Notes: generated by a model not told the origin, from the sequence alone. DNA of 64,000 bases from Bacillota bacterium (GCA_023459915.1 JAEWSN010000170.1:5508-69507), one strand, 5' to 3'. Shown: positions 14,825 to 32,758, numbered from the stretch's first letter. A program made the numbers and translations.

Positions 14825-14853
14825 TTGACGTTCGGTTTCACCGGGCATACGCT
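14825..14853 (+). promoter_or_regulatory. weak candidate promoter of the pilus-like operon
   Basis: TTGACG (14825-14830), 17-nt spacer, then TACGCT (14848-14853). Confidence 0.3.
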
Positions 14854-14889
14854 GTCACCATGGCCTGTGAGGGAAGAAGGGGTGGCGGC

Positions 14890-16011
14890 ATGGCATTGAC
14901 GTTGATGCTGATCGATTCGGATGAGGCGTATCGCAAGAAGCTGCGCGCATGGACGCGGGTGCACCCGGAGCTTGGGATGACCCTTGTGGACAGGGCGGAG
15001 GCGCCGCAGGGCACGAAGGAAGGGGACCGTGCGGCATTGCCCGCGGACACCGTGCTGCTGCTTGGTGTGCGGCACGCGCCGCTTCCGGCCCAATGGCCGC
15101 CAAGCGGGTCGCGGCTGGTGCTGCTCGAGGAGAACGGCACGGTGGCCACGCTTCCCGGATGCGCCGCTTCCGGCGGAGAATGGCCAATTCTCAGAAAGTA
15201 TCAGCCCGCCACCCAGTTTTTCCAGTCACTGCTGCAGGTGGCGGCCGAAAAGGGCTGGCACCTGCCCCATGTCCCCGACGCCGCGCGCTGCCGCATGACG
15301 GTGCTGCTTCATCCGGCGGGAAGCGTCCATCTGGCGCCCGTCCTGCCCGTGCTGGCCGCGCTGTGCGCCCGAAAGGCGGAGACGGCCATCCTCTCGTTGA
15401 ATGCGGCCATGGAGACCGGGTTCTGGTACGCGGGAGACACCGGCGGCGGGCTCACCCGCATGGCCTACGAGGCGCAGCGCGCGCCCCGGATCGGCATGGA
15501 AGCATTGCGCAGGTGCCTGGTCCGGGACGAGGGAACAGGCGTTCACGTCCTTCACTCCGCCGAGCTCCCGGAGGACGCAGCGGCATTGCGGGCGGATACG
15601 GTGGCGGGCACGCTGCAGGCGTGCGGGGAGCTGGGAATGGAAATGCTGCTGGTGGACGGCGGGGACATGCTGTCCGCGCGCAATCTCCAGCTGGCGCTGG
15701 CGGCGGACCAGGTGTTGTTTGTGCTGCCGGCGGATCTGTACGGCGCGCACATGATGGCGCGCGTTGTCCAGCTTGACGGGAGGCTCAGGCGCACGGGATC
15801 CGGCTGCTGGCGGGACAATCAGCCGGTGCGGTGGCTTTTCACGGGAACGGACATGCCGGCCATCCGCTGCGCGCTGCCCGCGACCCATGCGGTCAAACCC
15901 TTGCCGCCCGCATATCCGGACGGACCGGTGTCGGACGGGTGGGAGGTTTCGGACGCGTTTCTGCGAAGCCTGCACGCCTTGGTGCCCTTTTGCGGGAGGT
16001 GTGCGTCATGA
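14890..16011 (+). CDS. TadZ/CpaE-like protein (REC-like N-terminus plus ParA/MinD-like fold) lacking a Walker A motif
   Basis: ATG at 14890 follows GAAGAAGGGG. The N-terminus MALTLMLIDSDEAYRKKLRAWT is receiver-like. The centre has RMTVLLHPAGSVHLAPVLPVLAALCARK where TadZ/MinD proteins carry KGGxGK(T/S)T. Later, LLVDGG...ADQVLFVLPADLYG resembles the Walker B/switch region. The stop overlaps the cpaF start (ATGA). Confidence 0.5.
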   Translation: MALTLMLIDSDEAYRKKLRAWTRVHPELGMTLVDRAEAPQGTKEGDRAALPADTVLLLGVRHAPLPAQWPPSGSRLVLLEENGTVATLPGCAASGGEWPILRKYQPATQFFQSLLQVAAEKGWHLPHVPDAARCRMTVLLHPAGSVHLAPVLPVLAALCARKAETAILSLNAAMETGFWYAGDTGGGLTRMAYEAQRAPRIGMEALRRCLVRDEGTGVHVLHSAELPEDAAALRADTVAGTLQACGELGMEMLLVDGGDMLSARNLQLALAADQVLFVLPADLYGAHMMARVVQLDGRLRRTGSGCWRDNQPVRWLFTGTDMPAIRCALPATHAVKPLPPAYPDGPVSDGWEVSDAFLRSLHALVPFCGRCAS

Positions 16012-17447
16012 TGACGGAACAGGCGTTTCGCGACTGGATACGACAGCTGCGCAAGGCGGCGGCCGGGTTGGCGGCGGCGGCGCAGTGGGAGGAAGACGCA
16101 CCGCCGGCTGCGCGGCAGGGGTTGGCCGGCGAAGCCGCCGGCCTGGATGTGGAAAGCCTGCGGGACACGCGGCTGCGGGAAGACATCCAGGGGCTGATGC
16201 TCGCCCATCCGATGGCATGCGCCGCTTCCGCGGAGGAAAAGCACCAGGCGGTGGAGTCGGTGTTCAACGCCATGCGGCGGATGGACGTGCTCGAACCGCT
16301 GCTGCGCGATCCGGAGACCACCGAGATCATGGTCAACGGGCCGGATCATGTGTTTGTGGAGCGCCACGGCCGGCTTGAGCAGACCACGGTCCGGTTCGAC
16401 AGTCCGGATCGGCTGATGGAACTGATTCAGCATCTGGCGGCACGGGTCAATCGAAACGTCAACGAATCCGAGCCCATTGTGGACGCGCGGCTGGCGGACG
16501 GCTCCCGGCTCAATGCCGTTCTGCCGCCGGTGGCGCTCGACGGGCCGCTGCTGACCATCCGGCGATTCCCGGAGAGGCCGCCGGGCATGGCCGAGCTCAT
16601 TGCGTCCGGCTCGCTGACCGAGGAGGCGGCCAACTATCTTGGCGTTCTGGTGAAGGCGCGGTACAACCTGTTCATCTGCGGCGGCACCGGCAGCGGCAAA
16701 ACCACCTTTCTCAATGTGCTTTCCGGGTTCATTCCGGACACGGAGCGCATTGTGACCCTGGAGGATTCCGCGGAGCTGAAGCTGGCGGGCATCCGGAACC
16801 TGGCCCGGCTCGAAACGCGAAACGCCAACATGGAAGGCCGCGGGGAAATCACGATGCAGCAGCTGATCCGCACATCGCTGCGCATGCGGCCGGATCGCAT
16901 CATCGTGGGGGAGGTGCGCGGCGCGGAGGCATTCGACATGCTGCAGGCCATGAACACGGGGCACGACGGCTCCATGTCGACCGGGCATGCCAATTCTCCG
17001 GCCGACATGCTGTACCGGCTTGAAACCATGGTGTCCATGGCGGCCGCCATTCCGCTCGACGCCATTCGCCGGCAAATTGCGTCGGCGGTGGACATCATCA
17101 TCTTTCTGCAAAGGCTGCGCGACCATTCCCGCCGCGTGGTTGAAATAGCGGAAGTCACCACCTGCGGCGCAGACGGGATCACGCTGGTGCCGCTGTTCCG
17201 GTTTCAGGAGGGTGGGACGGATACGGCGCCGGGGCAACCGGGCACAGAGACAGGCGGGCCGGGTACGGCGGCACATGCGGCTGGCGGACTGGCGTGTGTC
17301 AGGGTTATGGGCGACCTGAAGCGAACCGGGGCAACGCTTGCCCGCGTGGAGAAGCTGAGGCTGCGCGGGCTTGCGCTGCCGGAGACCGAGGTGGCTACGG
17401 GTGCGACTGTCGAACGGACGGCAGCCGTGCGTGTGCCGGTGGCATGA
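16008..17447 (+). CDS. cpaF: CpaF/TadA-type secretion ATPase (VirB11/GspE superfamily)
   Basis: EIMVNGPDHVFVERHGRLE, Walker A GGTGSGKTTFLN, Walker B/Asp box RIVTLEDSAEL, RPDRIIVGEVRG, and His box TGHDGSMSTGHAN. GGGAGG RBS. Confidence 0.9.
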   Translation: MMTEQAFRDWIRQLRKAAAGLAAAAQWEEDAPPAARQGLAGEAAGLDVESLRDTRLREDIQGLMLAHPMACAASAEEKHQAVESVFNAMRRMDVLEPLLRDPETTEIMVNGPDHVFVERHGRLEQTTVRFDSPDRLMELIQHLAARVNRNVNESEPIVDARLADGSRLNAVLPPVALDGPLLTIRRFPERPPGMAELIASGSLTEEAANYLGVLVKARYNLFICGGTGSGKTTFLNVLSGFIPDTERIVTLEDSAELKLAGIRNLARLETRNANMEGRGEITMQQLIRTSLRMRPDRIIVGEVRGAEAFDMLQAMNTGHDGSMSTGHANSPADMLYRLETMVSMAAAIPLDAIRRQIASAVDIIIFLQRLRDHSRRVVEIAEVTTCGADGITLVPLFRFQEGGTDTAPGQPGTETGGPGTAAHAAGGLACVRVMGDLKRTGATLARVEKLRLRGLALPETEVATGATVERTAAVRVPVA

Positions 17448-17459
17448 AGGAGGAAGCGG

Positions 17460-19133
17460 ATGTCATCTTTCAACCTGCCCCACCCATGGCAAGGCACAAG
17501 TGCCGACCCGGCGGCCAGCTACTGGTCGCGCCCGTTGAACCTCACGGAAACCGTGCTGGCGGGATGTGTCGGCATGACGCTGGTGATGTTTGCCGCACAG
17601 GTGTTCTACGCGTCCTGGACGGCCATGCTGCTGTTCGCGCCGTTGGGGTTGCTGGCCATCCCCTGGTGGCGTCAAAAACGCGCGGACAAACGCCGGGAGC
17701 AATTCCTGATGCAATACCAGGACATGCTGTACTACCTGTCGTCCGCCATGTCCGCGGGCAAAACCACGGAATCCGCCTTTGCCGAAGTGTCCAGATATCT
17801 CATGGCGCAATACGGCGGCATGGAGACCGATCTGCTGCTGGAACTGAAGCGGCTTGCCGCCAAACTGGCCATGCGTGAGCCGGTGGAGCGCATTCTCGCG
17901 GACATGGCGGTGCGGACGGGGCTGGAGGATGTCAGGCAGCTGTCGGAGGTCATTGCCATTGGGCGGAGATCCGGCGGAAATCTTGTCGAAATTCTTCAGC
18001 AATCCATTCGGGTGTTGCGGGAAAAGATTGGCATCCGGCGCGAAATGGAAACGGCCTGGGCCTCCAAAAAGCTTGAGCAGCGCATTCTGTGCGTGTCGCC
18101 GGTGGCGCTGATCTTCATGCTCAGGAGCGGAACGGACAGCTTCATGGCCCCCATGTATGAAACCGCCGCCGGACGCCTCATCATGACCCTTGCGCTGCTG
18201 CTCATCGTTGCCGGGTACGCCATCGGCGCGCATATGATGCGGCAACCGGATGCCTGCCTGCGGCAACGGCCGGTGCCGGCTCCTTTGTCCGGGCCGACCG
18301 GGATCACGCCGCGGGAAGTGGGTCGGATGCCCGCCACAGACCCACGGACGGCAGCGGATGTCTCCGGGGTGCTGCGGCACCTGCTGCAATCTGCCGGTCA
18401 TCTGCTGGCCAACCTTCTGCCGGCGCGTGTTCGCGCCTTTGAGCGGCGGCGCCTGATGCCGCGGGTGCTGCTGTTGCGCGGTCCGGCGGACGCGGGTACG
18501 GATTTTGAGCGGCATCTCGCGGACAAATGCCTGCATGCCTGTCTTGGGATGGGGCTGGGCGCCCTGCTGTGTCTGCTTGGACAGGCGCCGGGCTATCTGC
18601 CGCTCGGTCTGCCGGCCGGCGGGGTGCTGCTCTGGTTCCTGTCCGACCGCCAGCTCGAAACGGCTTACAAACAGCGTTGCGAACAGCTGGTGCTGGAGTT
18701 TCCCGGATTTGTCTGCCGGGTGGCGCTGCTCACCGGCGCCGGGCTGCATGTCCGGCAGGCCTTGTGCCGCATCGTTGCCGGCGCTTCCATGGCCCATGCG
18801 GTGCTGAACCGGGAAGTCGCGTCGGTGCTCTCGGAAATTGAGGGTGGACTGCCGGAGGCCCAGGCATGGACCGAGCTGGCGGAACGCTGCCGCATACGCG
18901 AGATCGCCTCGCTGTGCGGGGTGTTCATGCAACATGCCCGGCTGGGGCATGCCGGCCTGGCCGCCGAGCTCCGACAGATGGCATCTGACAGCTGGGACAA
19001 CCGCAAACACGCGGCCCGGCGTCTGGGGGAGGAGGCGTCCTCGAAGCTGATGCTGCCGATGGCCATTCTGTTTGTGGCGGTTTTGATGGTCAGCGTCGCG
19101 CCGGCGTTCCTCTCCATGTCCATGGCATTCTGA
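17460..19133 (+). CDS. fused TadB-TadC platform protein (two T2SSF-like halves in one 557-aa polypeptide)
   Basis: The first half (LSSAMSAGKTTESAF...IAIGRRSGGNLVEIL...) and the second half (FVCRVALLTGAGLHVRQAL...RLGHAGLAAELRQMASD...) each resemble a T2SSF/TadB-C unit flanked by TM segments. GAAGGAGG RBS. Confidence 0.75.
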   Translation: MSSFNLPHPWQGTSADPAASYWSRPLNLTETVLAGCVGMTLVMFAAQVFYASWTAMLLFAPLGLLAIPWWRQKRADKRREQFLMQYQDMLYYLSSAMSAGKTTESAFAEVSRYLMAQYGGMETDLLLELKRLAAKLAMREPVERILADMAVRTGLEDVRQLSEVIAIGRRSGGNLVEILQQSIRVLREKIGIRREMETAWASKKLEQRILCVSPVALIFMLRSGTDSFMAPMYETAAGRLIMTLALLLIVAGYAIGAHMMRQPDACLRQRPVPAPLSGPTGITPREVGRMPATDPRTAADVSGVLRHLLQSAGHLLANLLPARVRAFERRRLMPRVLLLRGPADAGTDFERHLADKCLHACLGMGLGALLCLLGQAPGYLPLGLPAGGVLLWFLSDRQLETAYKQRCEQLVLEFPGFVCRVALLTGAGLHVRQALCRIVAGASMAHAVLNREVASVLSEIEGGLPEAQAWTELAERCRIREIASLCGVFMQHARLGHAGLAAELRQMASDSWDNRKHAARRLGEEASSKLMLPMAILFVAVLMVSVAPAFLSMSMAF

Positions 19134-19199
19134 CCGGATACGGGCATAATTGGTACCGGCCGCTGCATGTCGTGGCCGAAGCGAAGGGGGGAAGGGCAG

Positions 19200-19916
19200 A
19201 TGGACAAGCGCCAGCAGAGACGACGTGGGCAATGCGGCACCGCGGGCTCCGCAACCCTGGAGTATGCGCTGCTGATGCCCCTGATCCTTTTCATTGTGTT
19301 GATGGTGTGTCAGCTGCTGTTGCTGCTGCGCGACATGGCGGTGCTGGAAGCCGCGCTGTGGCGTTCCCTGAACATGGCCGCCGGCAGTTGGCATCGGATG
19401 TCGGCTTCATGCCCCGTTGTCACCGACACGCAGGCAGCGGCGACGACCAGCCCGCGTGACATGTATTGGGAGCTGAAAAGCGTGCTGGGCGCGGATCAAA
19501 CGAAGTGCGACATCCTTGAGGCCGCCACGCACCAGTGGCTGCGTGAAGAACTGGAAACTGGCGGTGGGCACAAGGGAACCGCCATCGAATGCCTTCGGGT
19601 GGATGAACTGGCGGTTCGCGTGGATACGGGGAGGGGACTGCCGTTCGGGGTGATGCACGCGGAGGCGGTTGTGCCGGTGGGTGGTTTTGTTGGCCGGTGG
19701 GCACGGCGACTGTCATCCGGGAAGGGACTGTCGGTGACTGTCGACGCGGAAGTGCTGTTCGCGCAACCCCACGCGTTTGCCCAGGACATGGACTGGGCAC
19801 TGCAACTGCTGGCGGATTCTCCGATGGGCAAGGCGGAGAGCCCCATGACTGAAAAGGGAAAAGACTTCATCGCCACCATTCACGGCGTGCTGTCGGGTTC
19901 AAAACAAGGAGGATGA
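19200..19916 (+). CDS. TadE-like pseudopilin (Flp-type leader G-SATLEY)
   Basis: MDKRQQRRRGQCGTAG/SATLEYALLMPLILFIVLMV has a basic leader, then Gly, Glu at +5 and a hydrophobic helix, as in TadE/Flp-family substrates of TadV. Confidence 0.6.
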   Translation: MDKRQQRRRGQCGTAGSATLEYALLMPLILFIVLMVCQLLLLLRDMAVLEAALWRSLNMAAGSWHRMSASCPVVTDTQAAATTSPRDMYWELKSVLGADQTKCDILEAATHQWLREELETGGGHKGTAIECLRVDELAVRVDTGRGLPFGVMHAEAVVPVGGFVGRWARRLSSGKGLSVTVDAEVLFAQPHAFAQDMDWALQLLADSPMGKAESPMTEKGKDFIATIHGVLSGSKQGG

Positions 19917-19917
19917 C

Positions 19918-22900
19918 ATGGTGAAACGCGGGTTGGAGCCAAGGCGAAAGGAGGCGGCGCATCGTGACGGCATGCGCCATGGGAGCGTCACCATCTTTCT
20001 GTGTGTGCTGCTCTCCATACTTGTGCCCTTGACGCTCATTCTCACGGATTTGGTGCGACTCCGCATCGCCCGGGTGAAGGTGGACAACGCGGTCCGTCTG
20101 GCCGCCGAATCCATTTTGGCGGATTATGAGCGGCCCTTGCGCGACCAATATGGTGTGCTTGGGGTTTCACCCCGGTCAGGATCGGTTGAGGAAGCGGCGC
20201 TGCTGTCCATGCTGCGCGACAATCTGGAGCCGGTTCCGCAAGACGGATACGCCGATCCGTTTGGCCTGCGCGTGCAATCCGGACAGGTGTCGATGGGTGG
20301 TCCCCTGAATGCCCCCGACGCGCTCGCCCCGCAGCTTGCGGAGTACATGCGGTATCGCGCGCCGGTCAGCCTGGCTGCAGGATGGCTGGAAAAGCTGCGC
20401 TCCCTGGCGGGCGCGTCGCGACAGGTGGCATGTGTTGAGGCTGAAATGGCACTGGAGCGCACGCGCGCGTTGGCAAGGGAGAACCTTGTGTACTTGTTTT
20501 TTCTCAAGGAAACGCGGTTGGATCGTTTTGGCCGTGACGCGGCAGGTGATTCATTGGCGGCTTCAACCGAATCCGTGATGAAAAACCAGACGGAACGGGT
20601 GGAACAGGGGGTTTCGGCATATCGGGAAAGTGCCGCGGCGCTGGCGGAGAACCTGCCCCGTTATCGGGCCAAGCAGCAGAGCCTGTCGCTGGCCGCAGCG
20701 TCCGTGTCACATGCGGAGGATGTGCTGTCCCAGGCCAATGCGGTGCTTGCCGAGGCGAAAAGCGCTTGGGAACTGGCCGGCAGCGCGGAGACATCGTCGG
20801 CGGGTTCGGATGGCGCCACCACACCGGCGGATTCAGAGGGATTTACATCTTCGGCGGACTCGGATGGCGCCACCACGTCGGCGGAATCGGATGGCGCCAC
20901 CACACCGGCGGAGTCGGCCGCGGAGGCGGCCGCGCATGCCAAATACCTGGCGGCCATGACGTCGGTTTCCATCGCGGAATCCGCGCTGGCAAGCGAAACG
21001 CGTGCCCATGGGCAGGAACAGGCCGCGTTCTCCGCCTGGTGTGAAACCCAGTGGCAGCCCGTCGCCAATACCGCCAGCCAGGCCCTGCGCCAAATCGGGG
21101 AAGGGTTGGCGGAGCTGCTGGCGGCACACCAGTCGCTGTCGGGCCATCTGTTCCGGCAGGGACTGTATCTTGAAAAAGCATGCTTTCTTGCAACCGGTCT
21201 GACTGGAACGCTGGCGGAGGTGGCAGCGCAGACCGCCGATGCGGCACTGCTTGCCGAAAGTGTTTCCGGGCAGCAGTCCGGCGGCGCGCTCTCGGCGAGT
21301 GCCAGCAAAAAGCCGTCATATCCTGACGAACAGGAGATGGATCGCGCGCGACAGTTTCTCGCAGGGTTCCGGGAGCGGGTGGCGGTGCTGGCACGTGCGT
21401 CGTCGGAGCGCGGGCAAGCGGTGGAGAACGCGCTTGTGTCCATGACACAGATGACAGGCGCGTTTGATGCAATGGCCCGGGACCCGGCAGGACCGGCACG
21501 GGTGCCCGAACTGCCGGAATCTGTTTGCCAGCCCGTCCTTCCCGGAACATCGCTTGGCGCATCCCCGGACCTGAAAGTGGATTTCAGTCAGGCATGGCTG
21601 GCCGAAACGGGACACAAGACCATTGACATGGGGCAGCCGCCATCCGAACAGGAGCGCGCGGCTTATTGGGACTGGTTTGCCGGATGGTCCGGCGAACCGG
21701 TGGATTCAGCGGATGGCGCGCCGGAAACACAGGATGCCAACCGGAAGGAATCGGCGAAAACCCTTCGGGCCATTCGGGAGGCGGCAGGCGTCACCTCGGA
21801 AGGGGTTCGAAAAGGGGAGGAAAACGCCGAGGGAGGTGTCATCCCTGAATCCATCCGGGATGCGCTGCCCAGTGCCATGCTGGCCCGGGCCATGTCCCGG
21901 ACGGACAACCATCCGCTGGCGCAGGCGCGCACGGGCAACCGGCAGCTGGATGAAACCCATGCCAACGATTTCACCCAGGCCATGGGCAGGATGGCGGGGC
22001 TCGCCGGCACCTTTGACCAGTTGCTTTCGCAATCATCGGACGCGCTGCTGCGGGTTTTGTGGGAGGATGCGTACATGCTGGCGGCATTCACCAATGCAAC
22101 CACCCCTGCCGGGGGGATTCCCGGAGACATCGCGTGGGGCCGCAAGCTGGACGGAAATGTCTTCAAAAAGGGAGAAGTGGAGTACATTCTGTTTGGGCAA
22201 ATGGAGGAAGGCAAGAATCTGCTGATCATGAAGGGGGCGCTGTTCGGGACGCGGCTGGCCCTGAACCTGCTGCACATTCACGCGTCCGCGGCAAAGCGCG
22301 CGGCCACGCTCTCCCTCGCGACAACCCTTGCCGGATGGACGGCGTTTGGCATTCCCGCTGTGCAGCACTTTCTGATGCTTGCCTGGGCCGCCGCGGAGTC
22401 CTGCACGGATGTGGATCGGCTCCTCAAGGGAATGCCGGTGCCCGTCATCAAGACAGACGCAAACTGGTTCCTTTCCGTTGGCAGTCTGCGTCAGGAGCTG
22501 GTTCAGAACCTGGTGCTCGACCCGTTGAAGGGCCGTGTGGCAGGCGCCGCCGGCGCGGCAATCGGCAAAGCCGATCAGGCGGTTCGCGAGACAGTGGGGG
22601 GATGGATTGACGCGGCTGTGGATGGCGCGTTCGCGCCATTGGAAATCGAATGCGCGGACTTTGGCTCGGCAATGGCCGATCAGCTTTCATCGGGCACTGC
22701 CGACCTGCCTGCCGCGGTTTCCGGCGCGGTGACGGCCTTTGTCGCGTCCCTGCCCCAATCGGATCCGCAAGCCATGCTGGATCAGGGATTCTCCCAGGCG
22801 CTGGCAGCGTTTGCCGATTCGTTGCGGACCGTGTCCGCCACGTATCTCCAGGAGGCGGGAGTGGCGAAGGTGGTGTCGTTGCGGGAACAAGTCAAGGTCT

Positions 22901-23334: not shown

Positions 23335-23335
23335 C

Positions 23336-24718
23336 ATGGGACACACATCGCCGGAGAGCCACCGTTTGGTGACGCGGACAGACAGGCGTTTCAGAGGATC
23401 CCACAGAGAGCCGCGTTGCAGGGAGTCGCGTTGCAGAGAGCCGCGTTTAGGTGGCTGGTACAAAGGACGCAGGACGGCAGGGCAGCTGACCATCGAAGCG
23501 GCGGTGACGCTGCCCGCCTTCCTATTTGCCCTGCTCGCCCTGGCCTCCCTGGTCAGCTATCCGATGACCTGTTTGCGGATTGAGCGGGCGATGACAGATG
23601 CGGCGCAGCTTGTCAGCTTGTCCGGACATGCGCTTGACATGACAGGATGCGGAGCCATGGGCACCGCATGGGAGAACGCCGCGCACGGGGGCACGGTCAT
23701 CGGGGAGCCGCAGCTCACGGAGGTGGAGACGCTTCTGGAACAACTGGGCATGACAACGGATCAGAACAATCCTGTGCAACAGTTGCTTGGGCTGGTTCGC
23801 CAATTCAGCCGATCCTTCGCTTCAGAAGCGGGAGAACTGGTTGTAGAAGCGGTGCAGGCAGGGGTTGCGCAGCTTGTCGGCGAACTGGTGACCTGGCGGG
23901 TGGGTGCGCTGGCAGACGGAACCCGTGATGGGTATCATGCGCGGGATCCTTGGGCGGCACTTGGGGTGGTGGGCGGTGCCGACGGCGTCGATTTCAGCCG
24001 GACCACCTTGCAGCTGTCGTCGGGAGATTTGATGGTTGTGGCACGGTACCGGCTCCGACCGGTCAGGGGCTTCGGGCTGTTGCCGGCCATCCCCTGCCAG
24101 AGCCGTGTCCGTGTCAGGATCTGGGGGGCAGGGATGGGCCCGGTGCTGCGCGAACCGTTGTTCTTCCCGACGGGCGACGCACAGGCGGCGCAGGCGGCAG
24201 AGAGCCTGTGGAACCATGGCAGTGGCGCGACTCCCGCTTGGAATCGCGGGTTGCTGATTGAGCAGCGGGAAATCGATAAAATCGCGCGGGGAACAAGGTT
24301 TGGGGGAGACTGGTTTGTCGGCTCGGACACCATGCAGGCGGGATACGACGCATTGTCGGGCTCCGTCAACTCAAACCAGGTGCAGGTTTGGCAGGTCATG
24401 AGCCTGAATCCGATGCTCCCTTCCTATGACGGCCAGCCATCCGAAATTCGGCGCGCTATCCGCAGGCAGCTCGCGGCCATGCCCCCGCGTGGCGGCTTGG
24501 TGTCACATCCGGGTGACGGCACCCAACGAACGGTGCTTGTCAGACGAATTGTGCTCGTGGTGCCACAGAACACGCCCGAAACGATGGACGCGTTGATCGC
24601 GGACATGGCGATGGGACTGGCGGCGGAAGGTGCCGTGATTGAATTGGTCAGAGGGTACGGAAATTATGGAGATGATGGGGTTCCTGCCAGGATTGACACC
24701 GGTGCCTCGGGTGGATGA
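23336..24718 (+). CDS. 460-aa TadE-like protein (leader ...TAG-QLTIEAAVTLPAFLFALLAL)
   Basis: G-x4-E motif followed by a hydrophobic helix after a basic N-terminal stretch that includes a 15-nt x3 repeat (REPRCRESRCREPR). The start lies 2 nt after the preceding stop. Confidence 0.55.
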   Translation: MGHTSPESHRLVTRTDRRFRGSHREPRCRESRCREPRLGGWYKGRRTAGQLTIEAAVTLPAFLFALLALASLVSYPMTCLRIERAMTDAAQLVSLSGHALDMTGCGAMGTAWENAAHGGTVIGEPQLTEVETLLEQLGMTTDQNNPVQQLLGLVRQFSRSFASEAGELVVEAVQAGVAQLVGELVTWRVGALADGTRDGYHARDPWAALGVVGGADGVDFSRTTLQLSSGDLMVVARYRLRPVRGFGLLPAIPCQSRVRVRIWGAGMGPVLREPLFFPTGDAQAAQAAESLWNHGSGATPAWNRGLLIEQREIDKIARGTRFGGDWFVGSDTMQAGYDALSGSVNSNQVQVWQVMSLNPMLPSYDGQPSEIRRAIRRQLAAMPPRGGLVSHPGDGTQRTVLVRRIVLVVPQNTPETMDALIADMAMGLAAEGAVIELVRGYGNYGDDGVPARIDTGASGG

Positions 24719-24745: not shown

Positions 24746-26365
24746 ATGATGTCGGAGCAACCGAATGTGATGACGGCGCTGGGGCTGGAGCGGCCTGTTT
24801 TTTCGCAAATGGCCGGACAAGCCGTTTTTCAGGTGGATGTGGCGCAAACGCAGGGCATCCTTTCCTACCAGTGGCACATGCTTCAGGAGAACAGGCCCGC
24901 GGGGCTGTTGCCGCTGTCTTGTTATGAAGAGGCCGGCCAGGTGCGACTGTGCTGGCGTGTCACAGCCCTCCAGCCGCTGGCGGTGATGTTCGCGGGCCGG
25001 AGCTGGTCGGTCGGGGAGGTGATTGGGCTGATTCGGCAGCTGTATCAAATCCTTGTGCAGATGGATGTGTTGCTGCTCGACGCGGAACGGCTGCTGCTCG
25101 ACAACCGCTACATTCTGGTGGATCCCGGGCGCATGGCGCTTCATCTGGCGTACTGCCCCCTGATGGAAGCCGTGGAAAACCCCGACGCAATCCGACAGCT
25201 GTTGTTGCGCTGGCTCACCGCCGATTGTCAGCTGAACGGAAATGACAGGATGGACAGATTGTCCGCGCTGCTCCTGATGCTGCGCGACCCTTCCTTTCAC
25301 TGGCGCCGGCTGTCGGAGTTGTTTGGTGGTATCGGGTCGGGGGATGGGGGCAATGCGTCCTGTGATTTGGCGGACACATACGATGTTGCGGGACTGCAGA
25401 CGATATCATCTGCCACACCACCGGCCTCCTCACAAACCGCATCAGACACAGGATCACATGCTGGAACCACTATCCGCAATGCCTATGGGGTCAACTCCGG
25501 GGACAAGACGCCGGGAAAGCCCATTGCTTCCTTTACCCGTAAGGGATCCCGCACGGAAGAGGGGGCGGAACCCGGATGGCGGCCTGATTTGTGGCGCATC
25601 ATTCCTGTGCAGCTGATACTGGTTGTCAGCGTGGTGGCAGTGTACTCCGGCGGTATCCTGACGGCATACGGGCCGGACGGTACCATGGCGCGCGCGGGCA
25701 TGGCGCTGCTTGCCGTGGCACTGGAGTTCTGGGCGTTTGCCACGGGGAAGCAGCGTCCCAAGCCTGCCCCTGTGGGTCCCGTTTCCGCGGCACCCCGCCC
25801 AAGCAATGGGCTTGCAGCCGCTCAGGCACCTCCCTGCGGAACCGGTGTGACCAGAGCGGCCGCAACGCCGTCATTTCCGTCCCATGAACCGGACAACACG
25901 GCATGGCACACGGAATTCCCGTCCCATGAACCGGACAACACGGCATGGCACACAGAATTCCCGTCGCGCGAACCGGATGTCATATCGCAGGCGGCTCCGA
26001 TAATATCGCAACAGGAAGCGTGGATGGAAGAAACCTGCCTGCTTGCCGGAAAAGCCGGTCCCTGTCTGCGGTATGAACCGCAAGACGCGCCGCCGCAATG
26101 CATCACGGTTTCAAAAACGCCTTTCCTGATTGGACGCATGCGCGATCAGGTGGATGGCTGGCTGGCGCATCCCACAGTGGGAAAGCTTCATGCGGAAATC
26201 CGGCTTGAGAAAGGGATGCACACCCTGGTGGACCTGAATTCCAGAAACGGCACCCGGGTCAACGGACGGCCACTCACGCCGTATGAACCCTGCGCGCTCC
26301 ACCCCAATGATCAGATTCTGATTTCGGGGGAAACACTGGTTTTTCTGGAACAGGCGCAATCATGA
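24746..26365 (+). CDS. membrane protein with a C-terminal FHA domain
   Basis: ATG at 24746 follows GGACGGAGGG. There are central TM segments (WRIIPVQLILVVSVVAVYSGGIL..., MALLAVALEFWAFA). The C-terminus FLIGRMRDQVDGWLAHPTVGKLHAEIRLEKGMHTLVDLNSRNGTRVNGRPL...ILISGETLVF is a canonical FHA signature. Confidence 0.8.
   Translation: MMSEQPNVMTALGLERPVFSQMAGQAVFQVDVAQTQGILSYQWHMLQENRPAGLLPLSCYEEAGQVRLCWRVTALQPLAVMFAGRSWSVGEVIGLIRQLYQILVQMDVLLLDAERLLLDNRYILVDPGRMALHLAYCPLMEAVENPDAIRQLLLRWLTADCQLNGNDRMDRLSALLLMLRDPSFHWRRLSELFGGIGSGDGGNASCDLADTYDVAGLQTISSATPPASSQTASDTGSHAGTTIRNAYGVNSGDKTPGKPIASFTRKGSRTEEGAEPGWRPDLWRIIPVQLILVVSVVAVYSGGILTAYGPDGTMARAGMALLAVALEFWAFATGKQRPKPAPVGPVSAAPRPSNGLAAAQAPPCGTGVTRAAATPSFPSHEPDNTAWHTEFPSHEPDNTAWHTEFPSREPDVISQAAPIISQQEAWMEETCLLAGKAGPCLRYEPQDAPPQCITVSKTPFLIGRMRDQVDGWLAHPTVGKLHAEIRLEKGMHTLVDLNSRNGTRVNGRPLTPYEPCALHPNDQILISGETLVFLEQAQS
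25874..25978 (+). repeat. in-frame 42-nt x2.5 tandem repeat in the FHA protein linker
   Basis: FPSHEPDNTAWHTE / FPSHEPDNTAWHTE / FPSREPD. The two full units differ at only 2 of 42 nt. Confidence 0.9.
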
Positions 26366-26431
26366 TATAATGAGCCATGGAAGCGTCGCCGGGCGGGGCT
26401 TCCCAATTGTGCACGGATGGAGGGCGTATCG

Positions 26432-27538
26432 ATGGACGGGCGTTCTGACACGGAGCATCCAGAACAGAAGCAAGCGCAAGCGAAAAGAAACGGCCCCAAA
26501 GCCAGCCGGCCGGAGCTGCTGGAACTGTCGCTTTTCTGCCATCAGGTGTCCCTGGTTCTGAAATCCGGCATTCATCCCATCGAGGGCATTCCGCTGATTG
26601 CCTCGGAAGTGGCCAATCCGGCATTGAAGCAGGCGCTTGAGGATGCGGGAGAAGCCGTTGTCAAGGGCACACCGCTGCATCAGGCGCTGTCACAGACAGA
26701 TGTTTTTCCGCCTTATCTGGTTGCGATGACCCGTCTGGGAGAGTCCTCCGGGATGCTCGAACAGGTCATGGAACGCTTGAGCGCGTTCTACGAAAAGGAA
26801 GATCGCCTGCGCAAGCGCATCCGCAGCGCGCTGACGTATCCGCTGCTGCTTCTGGCGCTGATGCTGGGCGTCATCATCCTGCTCGTTTCACAGGTGCTGC
26901 CAATGTTTGCGGCCATTCTTTCCTCACTTGGCGGAGAATTGCCGGGGGCCACCCGCGCGATGCTGGGTGCCGGCACCTTCTTTGGGCAGTGGGGCTGGGT
27001 GCTGCTGCTGGCGCTGGTCGTGGTTGCCGCACTGATGTATTTCCGGACAAGAACGGAAAAGGGGCGGTTCGCCTGGGATGCGCGGAAACTGAAACTCCCG
27101 CTGGTTGGCAAGCTGTTTGTCAAGTCGGCGGCCGCCCGGTTCAGCGCGGGGCTTTCCGTTGTGCTGCAAAGCGGCATGGAATTGCAGGAAGGGCTCTCGC
27201 AGGTGGAAGCACTCGCAGACAACAGGAAGGTCCGGGCCATGATTGCCGAGGTGACCCGACAGGTCGGAGCCGGAGCGGATTTGGGAACGGCGCTCGGCAC
27301 GGTTGCCCTTTTCCCGCCGCTGTTCACGCGGATGATGCAGATTGGCCAGCGGACAGGCGAACTCGATCGCATGATGGAGAAAATCGCCTCCCTGTATGAA
27401 ACGGAAGTGGATCAATCCGCACAGCAACTGTCCAACACCATCGAACCGGTGCTGATTCTCATCCTGTCCGTTGTCATCGGTGTGGTGCTGCTGGCCGTCA
27501 TGCTGCCGCTGATCAACATCATGGGAACCATCGGCTGA
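26432..27538 (+). CDS. PilC/GspF-type type IV pilus platform protein
   Basis: Two T2SSF repeats are present (LVLKSGIHPIEGI...LGESSGMLEQVMERLSAFYE and VVLQSGMELQEGL...IGQRTGELDRMMEKIASLYE) with three TM regions. ATG at 26432 follows GGAGGG. The track ORF starts at 26417. Confidence 0.85.
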   Translation: MDGRSDTEHPEQKQAQAKRNGPKASRPELLELSLFCHQVSLVLKSGIHPIEGIPLIASEVANPALKQALEDAGEAVVKGTPLHQALSQTDVFPPYLVAMTRLGESSGMLEQVMERLSAFYEKEDRLRKRIRSALTYPLLLLALMLGVIILLVSQVLPMFAAILSSLGGELPGATRAMLGAGTFFGQWGWVLLLALVVVAALMYFRTRTEKGRFAWDARKLKLPLVGKLFVKSAAARFSAGLSVVLQSGMELQEGLSQVEALADNRKVRAMIAEVTRQVGAGADLGTALGTVALFPPLFTRMMQIGQRTGELDRMMEKIASLYETEVDQSAQQLSNTIEPVLILILSVVIGVVLLAVMLPLINIMGTIG

Positions 27539-27540
27539 CC

Positions 27541-27619: not shown

Positions 27620-27928
27620 ATGAAACGCGCAGACACAAATCTGTCAACCCAGCTTGTCTTGTTGGCAGTGGTGCTGGTGCTGCTGCTGGCGGCTGTTTTT
27701 GGCATGCGCAGCTTCTGGCGCGATGCCAACCCGGACAGGACGGAGGCGGTTGTGCAGGCCATCCGCAAGGCGTCTGTGCAATGCTACGCGCTCGAGGGTA
27801 GCTATCCGCCGGATGTCGCATATCTGGCGGAGCATTATGGGCTCGCGATCGACATGGAAAAATACGCGGTTCGATACGAGGTGTTCGCCTCAAACATCAT
27901 GCCGGAAATCGAGGTGCATGAGCGATGA
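27620..27928 (+). CDS. small N-terminally anchored protein (102 aa), unassigned
   Basis: GGGAGGGG RBS. MKRADTNLSTQLVLLAVVLVLLLAAVFG is a signal anchor with no G-x4-E motif. The stop overlaps the next start (ATGA). Confidence 0.55.
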   Translation: MKRADTNLSTQLVLLAVVLVLLLAAVFGMRSFWRDANPDRTEAVVQAIRKASVQCYALEGSYPPDVAYLAEHYGLAIDMEKYAVRYEVFASNIMPEIEVHER

Positions 27929-28446
27929 CGCGGTTGGGACGCCGAACGGCGGGAAAAACACAGACGGAAGTGCTGGCGGTGTTTTTGCTGCTCCTGTTGA
28001 TGGGGGTCAGCGTGTTCACCCTGGCTTCCTCCGGCGTTGCGGCTTATCAGCGTTCGGAGCGTGCGCGTTCGGTGCAGGGAGAGCTGCGTGTGGCCATGTC
28101 CTTCCTGCAGATGAAGGTGCGGCAGTCCGATCGCGCCGGCGGCATTTATCTGGCGCCGAATCCCGTCAATGGAACCACCGCGCTGGTGCTGGCCGAAGAC
28201 ATTGAAGGGGTATCGTATGAAACCTGGATTTATCATGACGAAGGCCATGTGAAGGAAGCGCTCATCCTGGCGGGAGAACCGTTCGACAACACGATGGCCT
28301 TTGATGTGGCACAGGTCGGCGAACTGACGCTGAACACCAACGCGCTGGGCACCGGACTGCTGATTCGCGCGGCGTCAGAGGATGAAAATGGACGGACATA
28401 CCAGGCGCAAACCAGCCTGGCGATTCGCAGCGGGGGTGTCCGATGA
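27925..28446 (+). CDS. pseudopilin-like protein (leader MTRLGRRTAG-KTQTEVLAVFLLLLLMG)
   Basis: Basic leader, Gly, Glu at +5 and a hydrophobic helix. ATGA overlaps on both sides. Confidence 0.6.
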   Translation: MTRLGRRTAGKTQTEVLAVFLLLLLMGVSVFTLASSGVAAYQRSERARSVQGELRVAMSFLQMKVRQSDRAGGIYLAPNPVNGTTALVLAEDIEGVSYETWIYHDEGHVKEALILAGEPFDNTMAFDVAQVGELTLNTNALGTGLLIRAASEDENGRTYQAQTSLAIRSGGVR

Positions 28447-29009
28447 GTTTTGGCGCCAAGACCCGCGCAAGGCTCGCGGGATTCTCCCTCATTGAAATGC
28501 TGATAGCCGTAACCGTGCTGGCCTTGCTCGGCACGGTTGTGATTCAGGTGTTCCTGACAGCGGATCGGATGAACCGGCAGGCGCTGGTGCTCGATCGCGC
28601 GGTTTCTCTGAGCGCGGATGTGGTGGAACGGCTCAAGGCGGGCATTCCCGAGCAGGATGTGGACAGGGGGTTCCTGACGCAGCTGTTCCCCGAATCGTTG
28701 ATTGATGCCACGGACACCGGCTGGCAGGTGGAAATGCTGCTCGATGACAGCCTGGTGTCCCTGCCGCCGCAGACCATTGTACGTGCCTCCCATCTCATGT
28801 TGCTGACCATTTCCGAGGATCCCCAGACGGACGGCTTGTCCAGCCTGGTTCATGTGGCCATACACGAGGCCGGTGATCCGCGGGCAATCCCGCGTGCGGG
28901 AGCGCCTTCCGGTCCATCGGAATCCGAAGAAACCTGGAAGGCCGAACCGCTGTTCGACTTGGATGCGGCCATTGCGGCTGGGTGTGACACCGGGGAGGTG
29001 ACGCCATGA
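28443..29009 (+). CDS. type IV prepilin-like protein with a canonical N-terminal methylation motif
   Basis: MSFGAKTRARLAG-FSLIEMLIAVTVLALLG fits the G/FxLxE class III signal. ATGA overlaps on both sides. Confidence 0.8.
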   Translation: MSFGAKTRARLAGFSLIEMLIAVTVLALLGTVVIQVFLTADRMNRQALVLDRAVSLSADVVERLKAGIPEQDVDRGFLTQLFPESLIDATDTGWQVEMLLDDSLVSLPPQTIVRASHLMLLTISEDPQTDGLSSLVHVAIHEAGDPRAIPRAGAPSGPSESEETWKAEPLFDLDAAIAAGCDTGEVTP

Positions 29010-29719
29010 CGCGGCAATCAACCGTCCCTTCCTGTCGTATGGCTCGCAGACCGCGTGGCGCGTCCTCCATCCTGGTTCTGATGGTGTTGTTGCTGCTGGT
29101 GTTTCTTGCCGTGCTGACATTTGTCACCACGGGGGCCAACCTGCGGTTGGCGAAGAAAAACGCGGAGACCATCCAATCCTGGTATCGGATGGACGCGGCA
29201 GGCGAACAGGCCGCCGCAAAAATCCTGCACGCGTTGCGCTACACGGATGAACAGGCGCAGGCCTGGCTGGATGGGAACGGGTTCCTTCAGCCCGGCCAGG
29301 AAGTGTTGCCGGAGAACATCCGGCAGCAGATCCGGGATCAGTGGATTCAGCTTGTGACGGATGACGAGCGTCAGGCTTTTCGGGAGGCCATCGCAGCGCC
29401 GGTTGGCACGATGTTTGCCGAACAGGCGGTTCGCCGCCTTTCCCTGCCCGGGGTGGAAGTCGTTCCGGCCGATCCGCAGATCCTTTTCCCTGCAGGCGCA
29501 CTGAATGTGCCGGCTGCCGCCGACACCGCGCTGTTCTTCCGCTTGCGGATGGAAGATCCGGAACAAATGTCAGCCGGTTCGCTGCAGGCGGTGTTGGTAT
29601 ACCTGCCCCCCGAAAGCCCCGGACAACAGAGCCATGTGCAGGTGCTGTCGTGGCGGCTGGTGCAGGAACCATTTGCGTATACAAACGGAATCACGTTGTG
29701 GGAAGGGATTGTCGAATGA
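29006..29719 (+). CDS. PilX_N/ComGG-like minor pilin-like protein
   Basis: RRPRGASSILVLMVLLLLVFLAVLTFVTTGANLRLAKKNAE has a hydrophobic N-terminus without Glu5. It is coupled to pilT by an ATGA overlap. Confidence 0.5.
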   Translation: MTRQSTVPSCRMARRPRGASSILVLMVLLLLVFLAVLTFVTTGANLRLAKKNAETIQSWYRMDAAGEQAAAKILHALRYTDEQAQAWLDGNGFLQPGQEVLPENIRQQIRDQWIQLVTDDERQAFREAIAAPVGTMFAEQAVRRLSLPGVEVVPADPQILFPAGALNVPAAADTALFFRLRMEDPEQMSAGSLQAVLVYLPPESPGQQSHVQVLSWRLVQEPFAYTNGITLWEGIVE

Positions 29720-30816
29720 ATTTGCCAGGTATCGAGGGAAGCAAGCAGCTTCCTGTCAGCGACATGCTGAAAAAGGCCAAGGACCTCCAGGCTTCCGACC
29801 TGCAATTGACCGTGGGAGTACCCCCCATCATCAAGGTCAATGGCGCGTGGATGACGCTCGGTCGGGAAATCCTCATGCCGGAGGACACGGAGCGGCTTGT
29901 CAGGGAACTGTTTCCCACGCAGGCGCAGTTGACGCGTTATCTGGAAGAGGGAGACTTTGATTTCTCCGTGTCCATTCCGCGCAGCGGCCGGTTCCGGGTC
30001 AACGCGTTCCTGCAGCGCGGCTCCATGGCCGCGGCGGTCCGGCTGGTTCACGCGGAGCTGCCGGATCCCATTGAACTGGGCATCCCGCAGGCAGTCATGG
30101 ACATGCACCAGTACAACAAGGGGCTGGTGCTGGTCACCGGACCCACGGGCAGCGGGAAATCCACCACCTTGTCCTGCCTCATCGATCGCATCAACAAAAC
30201 CAGAAACGGGCATATCCTGACCCTGGAAGAACCCATTGAATATCTGCACCGCCACAACCACTGCATTGTGAACCAGCGGGAAATTGGAGAGGATACCCGG
30301 GATTACGCGCGCGCGCTGCGATCCGCGCTGCGGGAATCACCGGATGTGATTCTGCTGGGCGAGATGCGCGACCTCGAAACCATGTCCATCGCCATGACGG
30401 CCGCGGAAACGGGCCATCTGGTTTTTTCCACACTCCATACGGTGGGAGCGTCCAAGACCATCGACCGCATCATTGATGTGTTTCCGCCGGGACAGCAGCA
30501 GCAGATTCGCATCCAGCTGTCCACGGTGCTTCAAGCCGTGGTGAGCCAGCAGCTGATCCCGTCGGCGGCCCGGGGCCGGGTGCCCGCGTTCGAGATCATG
30601 AAGATGAACAACGCCATGCGGAATCTCATCCGGGAAGCCAAAACGTATCAGATGGACACCGCCATTGCCACAGGCAAGACCACCGGCATGGTGTCCATGG
30701 ACGGGAGCCTTGCCGAATTGGTCGGGGATGGCCTCATCACACGGGAGGACGCGTTTGCGTACTGTGTGAACCCGGAAGTCCTGACCCGCCTGCTTGCCGG
30801 GCAGGAGAAACACTGA
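29716..30816 (+). CDS. pilT: PilT-type (retraction-type) type IV pilus ATPase
   Basis: Walker A GPTGSGKSTT, ILTLEEPIEY, Walker B VILLGEMRD, His box GHLVFSTLHT, and the PilT-signature-like AMRNLIREAK. About 366 aa with no GspE_N domain. Confidence 0.9.
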   Translation: MNLPGIEGSKQLPVSDMLKKAKDLQASDLQLTVGVPPIIKVNGAWMTLGREILMPEDTERLVRELFPTQAQLTRYLEEGDFDFSVSIPRSGRFRVNAFLQRGSMAAAVRLVHAELPDPIELGIPQAVMDMHQYNKGLVLVTGPTGSGKSTTLSCLIDRINKTRNGHILTLEEPIEYLHRHNHCIVNQREIGEDTRDYARALRSALRESPDVILLGEMRDLETMSIAMTAAETGHLVFSTLHTVGASKTIDRIIDVFPPGQQQQIRIQLSTVLQAVVSQQLIPSAARGRVPAFEIMKMNNAMRNLIREAKTYQMDTAIATGKTTGMVSMDGSLAELVGDGLITREDAFAYCVNPEVLTRLLAGQEKH

Positions 30817-31757
30817 TGCGGCATGTTTGGCAGGGTTGGCTTGTATCCAATGGTGGACTGCAAATCCCGAAATTTCTCGATCAGGTGGCGTGGCTGGAGG
30901 GAACCTTCAGGCAGCGACGCATGACATTGCGCCCGGTGCTCAACCACCAGTTGTCGGCGGCGGTTGTCGACAACCGGCCGGCGGTGGTGTTCGAGGGCGC
31001 GTGTCTGGATGCCCAGTCCCACGGATTGCCGGATTTTGTCCTGTTCTGGGACAAGGATGTCCGGCTGGCCCGGATGCTGGAACGGATGGGGCTGCGCCTG
31101 TTCAACACAGCGGAAACAATCGCCGTGTGTGATGACAAGAGCGCCACCCATCTGGCCTTGTCCGGCATGGGCATTCCGTTGCCGGATACGGTGGTGGCGC
31201 CCATGAATTTCCCCGGCCGCATACCAATACAGGACGATTTTGTCGTTCACGCGGAAGCCGTGCTGGGATACCCGATGGTTGTCAAGGAATCGTTTGGATC
31301 CTTTGGCGATCAGGTATATCTTGCCTCGAACCGGGAGGAGTTGCTCGCGCTGCATGCCCGCCTGGAAGCGACTCCCCATCTGGCACAGCGATACATCCGG
31401 ACAAGCAATGGACGGGATGTGCGGCTTCAGGTGGTGGGAGACCGTGTGGTGGCGGCCATGCTGCGGCAGTCGGCGACAGATTTCCGCGCCAACGTCTCTG
31501 CGGGGGGGCACATGTCCCCATTCAGTCCCCCGGCATCCTTTGTGGATCTTGCCGTCAGGGCGGCCCGGGCGGTTGGCGCCGATTTTGCCGGTGTGGACCT
31601 GCTGTTTGGCGCGGGGGAGCAGCCGATGGTCTGCGAAGTGAACTCGAACGCGCACATGCGCAACATCGAGCAATGCACCGGGGTGGATGTTCCTGCGGCC
31701 ATTGCGGATCACATCGCGCATTGCCTGGAAGCGGAACGCGCAGGCAACGTAAAATAG
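30816..31757 (+). CDS. RimK-family ATP-grasp ligase 1
   Basis: The start overlaps the pilT stop (TGATG). CDDKSATHLAL..., GYPMVVKESFGSFGDQVYL, DFRANVSAGG and CEVNSNAH are typical of RimK-like alpha-L-glutamate ligases. Confidence 0.8.
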   Translation: MRHVWQGWLVSNGGLQIPKFLDQVAWLEGTFRQRRMTLRPVLNHQLSAAVVDNRPAVVFEGACLDAQSHGLPDFVLFWDKDVRLARMLERMGLRLFNTAETIAVCDDKSATHLALSGMGIPLPDTVVAPMNFPGRIPIQDDFVVHAEAVLGYPMVVKESFGSFGDQVYLASNREELLALHARLEATPHLAQRYIRTSNGRDVRLQVVGDRVVAAMLRQSATDFRANVSAGGHMSPFSPPASFVDLAVRAARAVGADFAGVDLLFGAGEQPMVCEVNSNAHMRNIEQCTGVDVPAAIADHIAHCLEAERAGNVK

Positions 31758-31776
31758 CGCTTGGACCTGCCTTGAA

Positions 31777-31841
31777 CCAAGCATGGAAACCAGGCACGGA
31801 ACCCAGGCATGGAACCCAGGCATGGAACACAGGAACGGAAC
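31777..31841. repeat. 13-nt x5 tandem repeat between the two ATP-grasp genes
   Basis: CCAAGCATGGAAA / CCAGGCACGGAAC / CCAGGCATGGAAC / CCAGGCATGGAAC / ACAGGAACGGAAC. Each unit carries A(T/C)GGAA. The array ends 14 nt before the AGGGAGG RBS. Confidence 0.9.
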
Positions 31842-31867
31842 CCATTGCGTCTCTTAGGGAGGATTGT

Positions 31868-32758
31868 GTGACAACAGGAAAAACCGGCTGGCTGATATAC
31901 CGGCAAGCGGATTTGACAGTGAATCGGGTGTTTGCCAACAGACTGATCGCAGCGGCAGCGGCCCATGGGCTTCAGCTGCGGCTGGTGGTGCATGAGACCT
32001 TGCAGTTCGGTGTGGCCCCGGATGGGTTGTATGCGCGCGTTCCGGGTTTCCCCGAGACACCGGATTTCGCCATACAGCGTGCGGTGGATCCCTTTTTGGC
32101 CATGCATCTCGAAGCGATGGGCATTCGCGTGTTCAACCGGGCGGCCATCAGTGCCATGTGCAACGACAAGGCCTGGACCCATCAGGCGGTCAGCCGGCTT
32201 GCGGTGCCCATGCTCCCCACCGCGTTCACCGATACGCCCGGCATGCCGGCGCTGGCGCCCTCGCTGACATGGCCCGCAGTCATCAAGGCAGTGGGGGGGA
32301 GAAGCGGCAAGCAGGTGCACCTGGCGGCGGACAGGGAGGCGTATGAGCGGCTGTGCGGGGAATTGCCGGCCGGCCGGTACATCGTTCAGCCCCTCGGCGG
32401 CGTGCCCGGGGTTGATGTGCGGGTGTTTGTCATTGGCGGCCGCATTGTCGCGGCCATTCGCCGCGAGGCGGCCGCGACGGGGCAGGGTGGTTTCCGGGCG
32501 AATTTCTCCATGGGGGGTCAGGCCTCGGTCCATCTCCTGACCGAAATGCAGCGGGCGCTTGTGACACGGATTGCGGAAGCGTTTCCCTTCGACTACGTGG
32601 GCATCGATTTCCTGCTGGATGAACAACAGGCGTTCCTGTTCAATGAGATCGAGGACGCGGTGGGAAGCCGCACGCTGAGCATCTGCACGGATATCGACAT
32701 CGCGGATCTGTTCCTTGCGCACGTTCGCGCGTGTCTGGAGGCACGTCCCGGGGCGTGA
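31868..32758 (+). CDS. RimK-family ATP-grasp ligase 2
   Basis: GTG at 31868 follows AGGGAGG. CNDKAWTHQAV..., WPAVIKAVGGRSGKQVHL, GFRANFSMGG and FNEIEDA are present. It is a paralogue of the preceding gene. Confidence 0.8.
   Translation: MTTGKTGWLIYRQADLTVNRVFANRLIAAAAAHGLQLRLVVHETLQFGVAPDGLYARVPGFPETPDFAIQRAVDPFLAMHLEAMGIRVFNRAAISAMCNDKAWTHQAVSRLAVPMLPTAFTDTPGMPALAPSLTWPAVIKAVGGRSGKQVHLAADREAYERLCGELPAGRYIVQPLGGVPGVDVRVFVIGGRIVAAIRREAAATGQGGFRANFSMGGQASVHLLTEMQRALVTRIAEAFPFDYVGIDFLLDEQQAFLFNEIEDAVGSRTLSICTDIDIADLFLAHVRACLEARPGA

Follow-up and report, generated by a model that had tools for sequence, protein, structure and literature searches.

Type IV filament systems are classified by the pairing of an ATPase with a platform protein, and PilT is taken as the retraction-only partner of pili built by PilB. 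Two such pairs encoded side by side on one strand raise the question of whether they form one machine or two. The case considered here lies in a stretch of 64,000 nucleotides from Bacillota bacterium (GCA_023459915.1 JAEWSN010000170.1:5508-69507; hereafter the window), where 15 + strand open reading frames (ORFs), g1–g15, run from 14890 to 32758. They encode a Tad-type set of proteins (g1–g7, module A), a set that starts with a PilC-type platform and ends with a PilT-type ATPase (g8–g13, module B or the PilC–PilT cassette) and two RimK-type ligases (g14 and g15). A preliminary description of the window read this 18-kb run as a single coupled operon wiring both halves into one machine, extended by TadA and retracted by PilT. 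We conclude instead, with moderate confidence, that two separable type IV filament modules stand head to tail in this cluster, joined in one lineage only and with the two ligases behind them; modules A and B are more likely neighbours than parts of one hybrid machine.

The modules joined and apart

The joined order is known from seven related loci, all of one lineage. The locus scan used an alignment of 15 PilC sequences, a 35-sequence alignment being too diverse. The full order (rpoD, g1–g7, PilC to PilT, the RimK genes, HU, glpK and a minus-strand TadG-like gene) recurs in loci L051, L001/L005, L004 and L008, with partial copies of the joined order in L006 and L007. Identity among these relatives falls to 55% for PilC and to about 27–46% for the FHA protein. 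The two halves therefore do occur together in relatives, in seven loci; conservation of the gene order holds within this one lineage but not beyond it, where the halves are separate.

Outside the lineage the cassette stands alone in about 30 other loci of Clostridia and Eggerthellaceae (L009–L049). It consists of six genes, in the order PilC, g9-like, DUF4860-like, N_methyl-like, PilX-like and PilT, set in unrelated contexts; its hosts include Ruthenibacterium, Bittarella, Allofournierella and Gemmiger, together with metagenome-assembled genomes of Peptostreptococcaceae, Lachnospiraceae and Eggerthellaceae. Among the individual carriers are OW818693.1 (GCA_942493335.1), Ruthenibacterium lactatiformans 585-1, Bittarella massiliensis GD6, Allofournierella massiliensis DSM 100451 and Gemmiger sp. 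An87. PilT is the sole T2SSE ATPase within ±10 kb in 25 of the 25 stand-alone loci whose upstream sequence extends for 5 kb or more, and no other pil gene was found within 10 kb of the cassette in the roughly 30 loci. Identity to PilT grades smoothly from 71–77% in the joined lineage to 48–70% in stand-alone cassettes, and most of the diversity is found in the latter.

The Tad half is also found by itself. Loci L052 and L053 are stand-alone Tad loci of the same type, and L060 is similar (A24, DUF5702 and FHA detected). The order in L052 and L053 is A24, TadZ-like, CpaF, TadB, TadC, Flp1_like, DUF5702, TadE-like, A24, TadE-like and DUF6382-FHA. Of 80 metagenomic Tad loci whose CpaF proteins are closest (42–60% identity), none has PilC, g9 or PilT downstream. 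The single machine of the preliminary description is left unsupported by these findings: the cassette occurs alone with PilT as its only T2SSE ATPase, and Tad loci of the same type occur alone with Flp and A24 genes (L052, L053 and L060).

The boundary between the modules argues against a single operon as well. A perfect extended -10 promoter-like element, TGATATAAT, is found there, 45–60 nucleotides 5′ of pilC, and has a single occurrence in the window against 0.01 expected. The identical 9-mer lies 5′ of pilC in L051, L001, L004, L006 and L007, and it is the sole conserved block in the otherwise unalignable g7–pilC spacers of the six related loci. It is also present, exact, upstream of the stand-alone cassettes of L012, L016 and L044 and, with one change, of L019 and L042. 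Because the box is conserved both in the joined loci and before stand-alone cassettes, the cassette appears to have brought and kept its own promoter. The preliminary description overlooked this box but was right that no terminator lies at the g7/g8 boundary, and with no terminator between the modules read-through from A to B is possible.

The outline of the cluster was otherwise accurately drawn. All 15 ORFs are present; the four-base ATGA overlaps at 16008, 27925, 28443, 29006 and 29716 are exact, as is the TGATG junction at 30816, with its one-base overlap, and the remaining intergenic gaps measure 1–110 nucleotides. A terminator scan gives the site after rpoD as the sole strong one, in agreement with the claim that no intrinsic terminator lies inside the cluster. 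At the 3′ end the terminator that had been described exists as a hairpin (Table 1), but it is a weak + strand terminator; because its T-run is on the minus strand, it would mainly end the minus-strand gene for an HU-like DNA-binding protein (32819–33121), which converges on the cluster and shares the hairpin.

Components of the cluster

Table 1. Genes, boundaries and predicted promoter of the cluster; positions are those of the window (aa, amino acids; TM, transmembrane)
Feature	Position	Strand	Basis or remark
rpoD intrinsic terminator, upstream cluster boundary	14770..14796	+	11-bp stem, 9 GC pairs, then TTTTTAT
g1, 373 aa, at TadZ/CpaE position; degenerate P-loop	14890..16011	+	position; family not established
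g2, CpaF/TadA ATPase, 479 aa	16008..17447	+	T2SSE 203 bits; Walker A, Walker B and His box read directly
g3, TadB+TadC in a single 557-aa ORF	17460..19133	+	two T2SSF stretches
g4, TadE-like pseudopilin, 238 aa, G/SATLEY	19200..19916	+	PF07811 23.4 bits vs cut-off 22.9
g5, DUF5702 membrane-anchored protein, 1138 aa	19918..23334	+	PF18960 144 bits
g6, 460 aa, TadE-type N-terminus G/QLTIE (G-x4-E)	23336..24718	+	PF07811 14.8 bits, below cut-off
g7, DUF6382 + two TM helices + FHA, last Tad-module gene	24746..26365	+	PF19909 70 bits, PF00498 53 bits
Extended -10 promoter-like box TGATATAAT	26363..26371	+	perfect element; overlaps g7 stop codon
g8, PilC/GspF-type platform, 368 aa, alternative start 26417	26432..27538	+	T2SSF twice, 179 bits
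g9, 102-aa bitopic protein, cassette marker family	27620..27928	+	no Pfam family
g10, DUF4860 pilin-like protein, 173 aa, G/KTQTE (G-x4-E)	27925..28446	+	PF16152 63 bits
g11, prepilin-type minor pilin, 188 aa, G/FSLIE	28443..29009	+	N_methyl PF07963 24.6 bits; TIGR02532 above cut-off
g12, 237-aa anchored protein, G/ASSIL, no E5	29006..29719	+	position conserved in all cassettes
g13, PilT-family ATPase, 366 aa, AMRNLIRE	29716..30816	+	TIGR01420 427 bits vs cut-off 319
g14, RimK-family ATP-grasp ligase	30816..31757	+	TIGR00768 184 bits vs cut-off 143
g15, second RimK-like ligase	31868..32758	+	TIGR00768 135.5 bits vs 143.4 (just below); PF08443 74 bits
Hairpin, downstream cluster boundary	32763..32785	.	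read from sequence; unlisted by terminator scan

Most of the protein assignments made earlier agree with the family scores in Table 1: a CpaF/TadA ATPase, TadB and TadC in a single polypeptide with two T2SSF halves, an FHA membrane protein with two TM helices, a PilC/GspF platform, four small anchored proteins (g9–g12, two of them, g10 and g11, with the G-x4-E motif), a PilT-type ATPase and two RimK-like ligases. The ATPase of module A, g2, matches Caulobacter CpaF (8rkd) with 324 bits and TIGR03819 with 314 bits, the latter under the equivalog cut-off of 373. The fusion of TadB and TadC in g3 is also present in L004, the two being separate genes in L001, L008 and L051. TadE follows directly after TadC in the joined lineage, at the slot held by the Flp gene in L052. 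Protein g5 is homologous to the 483-aa DUF5702 protein of L052 but longer by a central segment that is rich in Ala/Ser/Thr and bears repeats (SDGATT..); a size of 1116–1140 aa is kept across the joined lineage. TadE/TadG-type N-termini had been ascribed to g4, g5 and g6 alike; of these, g4 passes the TadE cut-off, g6 is sub-threshold with a G-x4-E motif and g5 is a DUF5702 protein.

The gene that closes module A, g7, has a counterpart at the end of stand-alone Clostridial Tad loci such as L052, and its architecture of DUF6382, two TM helices and FHA is that described for TsfJ in variants of the type VII secretion system (T7SS), at T7SSf loci (PMC11217815). It also contains a direct peptide repeat, FPSHEPDNTAWHTE, twice. 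For g1 the label 'TadZ-like' is right as to position; otherwise there is one weak NCBIfam match, to TIGR03815 (E=0.002). No Pfam or PDB match was obtained for g1, its BLASTP comparison with the TadZ-like protein of L052 was not significant, and its single-sequence AlphaFold2 (AF2) model has a predicted local distance difference test score (pLDDT) of 37.8.

No Flp pilin, PilB or prepilin peptidase had been noticed in or around the cluster, and the searches concur for the whole 64-kb window. No ORF resembling Flp emerged from a regex and motif scan of the window, L001, L004, L008 and L051, and tblastn with a motif scan found no A24 peptidase in the window or its syntenic relatives. The same scans recovered the Flp1-like pilin and both A24 genes of L052 as a positive control, and a hidden Flp or A24 gene in the window was rejected on this ground. 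An Flp gene with its peptidase just outside the operon was likewise not found within the 64 kb. Beyond g2 and g13 the window encodes no PilB or other T2SSE ATPase; no PilM, PilN or PilO match was obtained with Pfam or NCBIfam among the 15 cluster proteins, none is present in the 64 kb, and g9 is too small for any of these subunits. The prepilin peptidase of B. breve is encoded at a different locus from its tad genes (PMC6916266) and, by this precedent, a monoderm Tad locus without a peptidase would not be unusual.

The platform protein of module B, g8, scores 271 bits with the NCBIfam model for GspF, 263 bits with PilC and 132 bits with ComGB, all under the respective cut-offs. Its start is probably 26432, which yields the 368-aa length of P0001, a protein 98% identical to it; an exact database look-up of the 373-aa version returned nothing, the databases carrying the 368-aa start. 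The PilT assignment of g13 is firmer, with a full-length match of 358 bits to A. aeolicus PilT (2ewv). Identity as ComGA (129 bits against a cut-off of 300) or PilB (135 bits against 676) was rejected, and the NCBIfam and PDB scores together rule out that g13 is a PilB/ComGA orthologue. Across the 39 cassette PilTs (39/39), Walker A, Walker B and the Asp box are invariably present, as is a motif of the AIRNLIRE type; the His box is retained in almost every one.

The small proteins of the cassette are more varied. The best conserved, g9, has an invariant CYAxEGxYP..L.YL...YG and no G(-1)/E5 prepilin signal; its family comprises 1,284 clusters at 50% identity in a full profile search, and the named homologues are all annotated as hypothetical, bar one labelled DUF4231. 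Its AF2 model (pLDDT 90) has a long N-terminal helix and a small alpha/beta head. Type IV pilins gave the top TM-scores in a Foldseek search with this fold (PilA4, 0.54), none of them significant (E >1); with no Pfam or PDB sequence match either, g9 was rejected as a known pilin. As regards a major pilin with a class III signal peptide, G(-1)/E5 is present in g10 and g11, and g9 has a pilin-like shape without the signal. Protein g12 may be called PilX/ComGG-like by position and N-terminus only; its family has no Pfam entry, and neither the g10-like nor the g12-like set has a relevant PDB sequence match. Most small proteins of distant cassettes are without G(-1)/E5.

Directly 5′ of many stand-alone cassettes in Lachnospiraceae and Oscillospiraceae there seems to be a transglutaminase-like gene. 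It is Pfam-confirmed (PF01841, DUF553) only in L049, at 8965–9939 of that locus, and was inferred from similar 3′ coding sequence in L018, L022–L024, L027, L029, L036 and L045; it may be a seventh cassette gene. The RimK genes are linked to pilT only in the joined lineage: g14 is translationally coupled to pilT here and lies 165–200 nucleotides from it in L001 and L051, L008 has one RimK gene and stand-alone cassettes have none.

The window has a G+C content of about 62% and carries nearly all of its genes on the + strand. The cluster is flanked by housekeeping genes, apart from a lone minus-strand TadG-like gene (PF13400, 26.9 bits) at 35079–36233, 2.3 kb past the cluster and after glpK. The TadG-like protein is 73% identical to the L001 copy, far above the conservation of the Tad pseudopilins, and its gene is syntenic in L001 and L051; it possibly belongs to the Tad system. 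Three tandem 25-nucleotide copies of TTTTCTGGACTGAGACCATCCGTTG at 14681–14755 span the rpoD stop codon just 5′ of the rpoD terminator, their 13-mer core occurring three times against 0.05 expected, and the N-terminal region of rpoD carries a peptide repeat. Further away, a T-box leader (5317–5595, 99.7 bits) lies upstream of genes for DAHP synthase and prephenate dehydratase; it is the only known RNA given by an Rfam scan for riboswitches and other known RNAs near the cluster. An RNase R-like ORF at 62093–64000 contains the short peptide repeat GTRGDNDGTRGDNDGTREDNDGTREDND.

One machine or two neighbours

On the two-module reading, module A is a Clostridial Tad (type IVc) locus, with CpaF as motor and TadB/TadC as platform, together with TadE-like pseudopilins, a DUF5702 protein and a DUF6382-FHA membrane regulator; in the joined lineage it has ceased to carry the Flp1-like pilin and A24 genes present at loci of the same type elsewhere. 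Module B is a compact six-gene cassette with its own predicted extended -10 promoter, inherited as a unit in many Clostridia. The comparisons establish where the modules begin and end, that either can occur alone, that the promoter-like box is conserved and that g2 and g13 are CpaF and PilT. As for function, each module would build its own filament or pseudopilus, and the proteins with G(-1)/E5 (g4, g6, g10 and g11) would be processed by a prepilin peptidase whose gene lies outside the window. PilT would dock on its cognate PilC as the dedicated, possibly sole, motor of the cassette machine and would be responsible for the dynamics of a short filament composed of g9–g12. Because the cassette is without PilB wherever it is found, PilT would be either the sole motor or dependent on a pil system elsewhere in the genome.

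Several points weigh against this separation. The join is kept on one strand, with no internal terminator, across relatives diverged to 55% PilC identity, and its conservation could reflect selection for co-expression. Module A is without a major pilin, module B without a recognisable extension ATPase or canonical major pilin, and neither looks complete alone; the cassette's own promoter, moreover, is a prediction from sequence. Functional coupling of the modules in the joined lineage is possible. In its strongest form, this would be a hybrid machine in which a filament of TadE-like proteins and the pilin-like proteins of the cassette is extended by CpaF with TadB/TadC and retracted by PilT with PilC, offsetting the loss of Flp. 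The cassette, otherwise a self-sufficient, minimal PilT-only machine, would have been recruited to an Flp-less Tad module to give a true Tad/type IVa hybrid. Besides the conserved co-linearity on a single strand, it is favoured by the Tad half having lost Flp and A24 only where the cassette adjoins it, and by the similar leader motifs of g6 and g10 (RRTAG/..). Yet each module occurs autonomously elsewhere, and the cassette has retained a conserved predicted promoter of its own. CpaF is itself bifunctional in Caulobacter, serving extension and retraction (PMC6920026), so Tad pili need no PilT. Nor is the missing extension ATPase explained by the Tad neighbour, because it is missing also in cassettes with no Tad genes nearby. 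We regard the hybrid as improbable, both as a shared filament and as a recruited PilT-only machine.

Two further readings give up the equal standing of the modules. The cassette could be an accessory unit for retraction and priming, made up of PilT, a second PilC and minor pilins, that serves a canonical type IVa pilus (PilA, PilB, PilD and PilMNO) encoded elsewhere in the genome, its adjacency to the Tad genes being incidental. The order, minor pilins and then pilT, is similar to that at the distal end of monoderm type IVa loci, for example the C. difficile pil cluster, and the cassette includes no PilB, PilD or canonical major pilin. Moreover, in every system studied, piliation can proceed without PilT, which acts on pili built by PilB (PMC6916266). 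However, the cassette has its own platform protein and is a fixed six-gene unit with no other pil gene within 10 kb in about 30 loci, and the loss of the G(-1)/E5 signal from most small proteins in many cassettes fits poorly with a PilD-dependent pilus; an accessory role is accordingly rather unlikely in our judgement. Conversely, the Tad half could be a decaying or repurposed remnant that makes no pilus, leaving the cassette as the sole working filament system of the cluster. No member of the lineage has Flp or either A24 gene at the locus and the P-loop of g1 is degenerate, but several species at 27–50% protein identity have all seven Tad ORFs intact and in synteny, and CpaF keeps its catalytic motifs. 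Since the ORFs persist in this way despite divergence, the Tad half appears to be under purifying selection, and we consider a remnant very unlikely.

If the modules are independent, as the two-module reading holds, the result is mainly a correction: adjacency and overlapping stop and start codons do not make a hybrid machine. The cassette is the more interesting part of the cluster. Gut and environmental Clostridia widely carry this six-gene unit, which has PilC and PilT but no PilB, PilD or PilMNO. Should the unit function unaided, it would provide a natural example of a filament run by a PilT-clade motor on its own. Its join to a Tad locus without Flp or peptidase also offers a concrete place in which to test the sharing of parts between two filament systems.

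Comparison with known filament systems

This arrangement is described in none of the literature found by searches on PilT, Tad and Clostridia; no paper mentioning DUF4860 or DUF5702 was found, and DUF6382 was found solely in T7SS variants. The PilC–PilT cassette appears to be undescribed. Partial precedents exist for one ATPase that acts in both directions, as a PilB-less cassette would need: the bifunctional CpaF of Caulobacter (PMC6920026) and PilT of Vibrio cholerae, which promotes extension of the MSHA pilus (PMC9815625). Unlike these experimentally studied proteobacterial systems, the one-motor idea is drawn here only from gene content within ±10 kb.

Module A resembles monoderm Tad (type IVc) loci, such as tad of B. 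breve and those of L052 and L060, in its CpaF/TadA ATPase, TadB/TadC pair and TadE-type pseudopilins, in the gene before the ATPase at the TadZ position and in having DUF5702 and DUF6382-FHA proteins as in L052. It differs in the absence of an Flp/Flp1-like pilin and A24 peptidase from both locus and window, and in its fused TadB/TadC, its 1138-aa DUF5702 protein and the PilC–PilT cassette that directly follows it. Module B, in turn, is similar to monoderm type IVa loci (pil of Streptococcus sanguinis and the pil clusters of Clostridioides difficile and C. perfringens) in having a platform of the PilC type and a group of small pilin-like proteins, followed by a canonical PilT with an intact AIRNLIRE-type motif. 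Unlike those loci, it has no PilB, PilM/N/O, PilD or canonical major pilin, and g9, the first of its small proteins, lacks both a prepilin signal and a Pfam model for its family.

The ComG operon of Bacillota (comGA-GG) offers the other comparison. The cassette ATPase is of the PilT clade, well below the ComGA cut-off, and is encoded at the end of the operon instead of the start; g8 falls below the ComGB cut-off (132 against 240 bits), and g9 is without the prepilin motif of ComGC. In overall plan, however, the two are alike: both are compact and encode one ATPase of about 360 aa, one platform protein of about 350 aa and four or five small pilin-like proteins, and in both a protein of about 100 aa, ComGC in the one and g9 in the other, comes directly after the platform gene.

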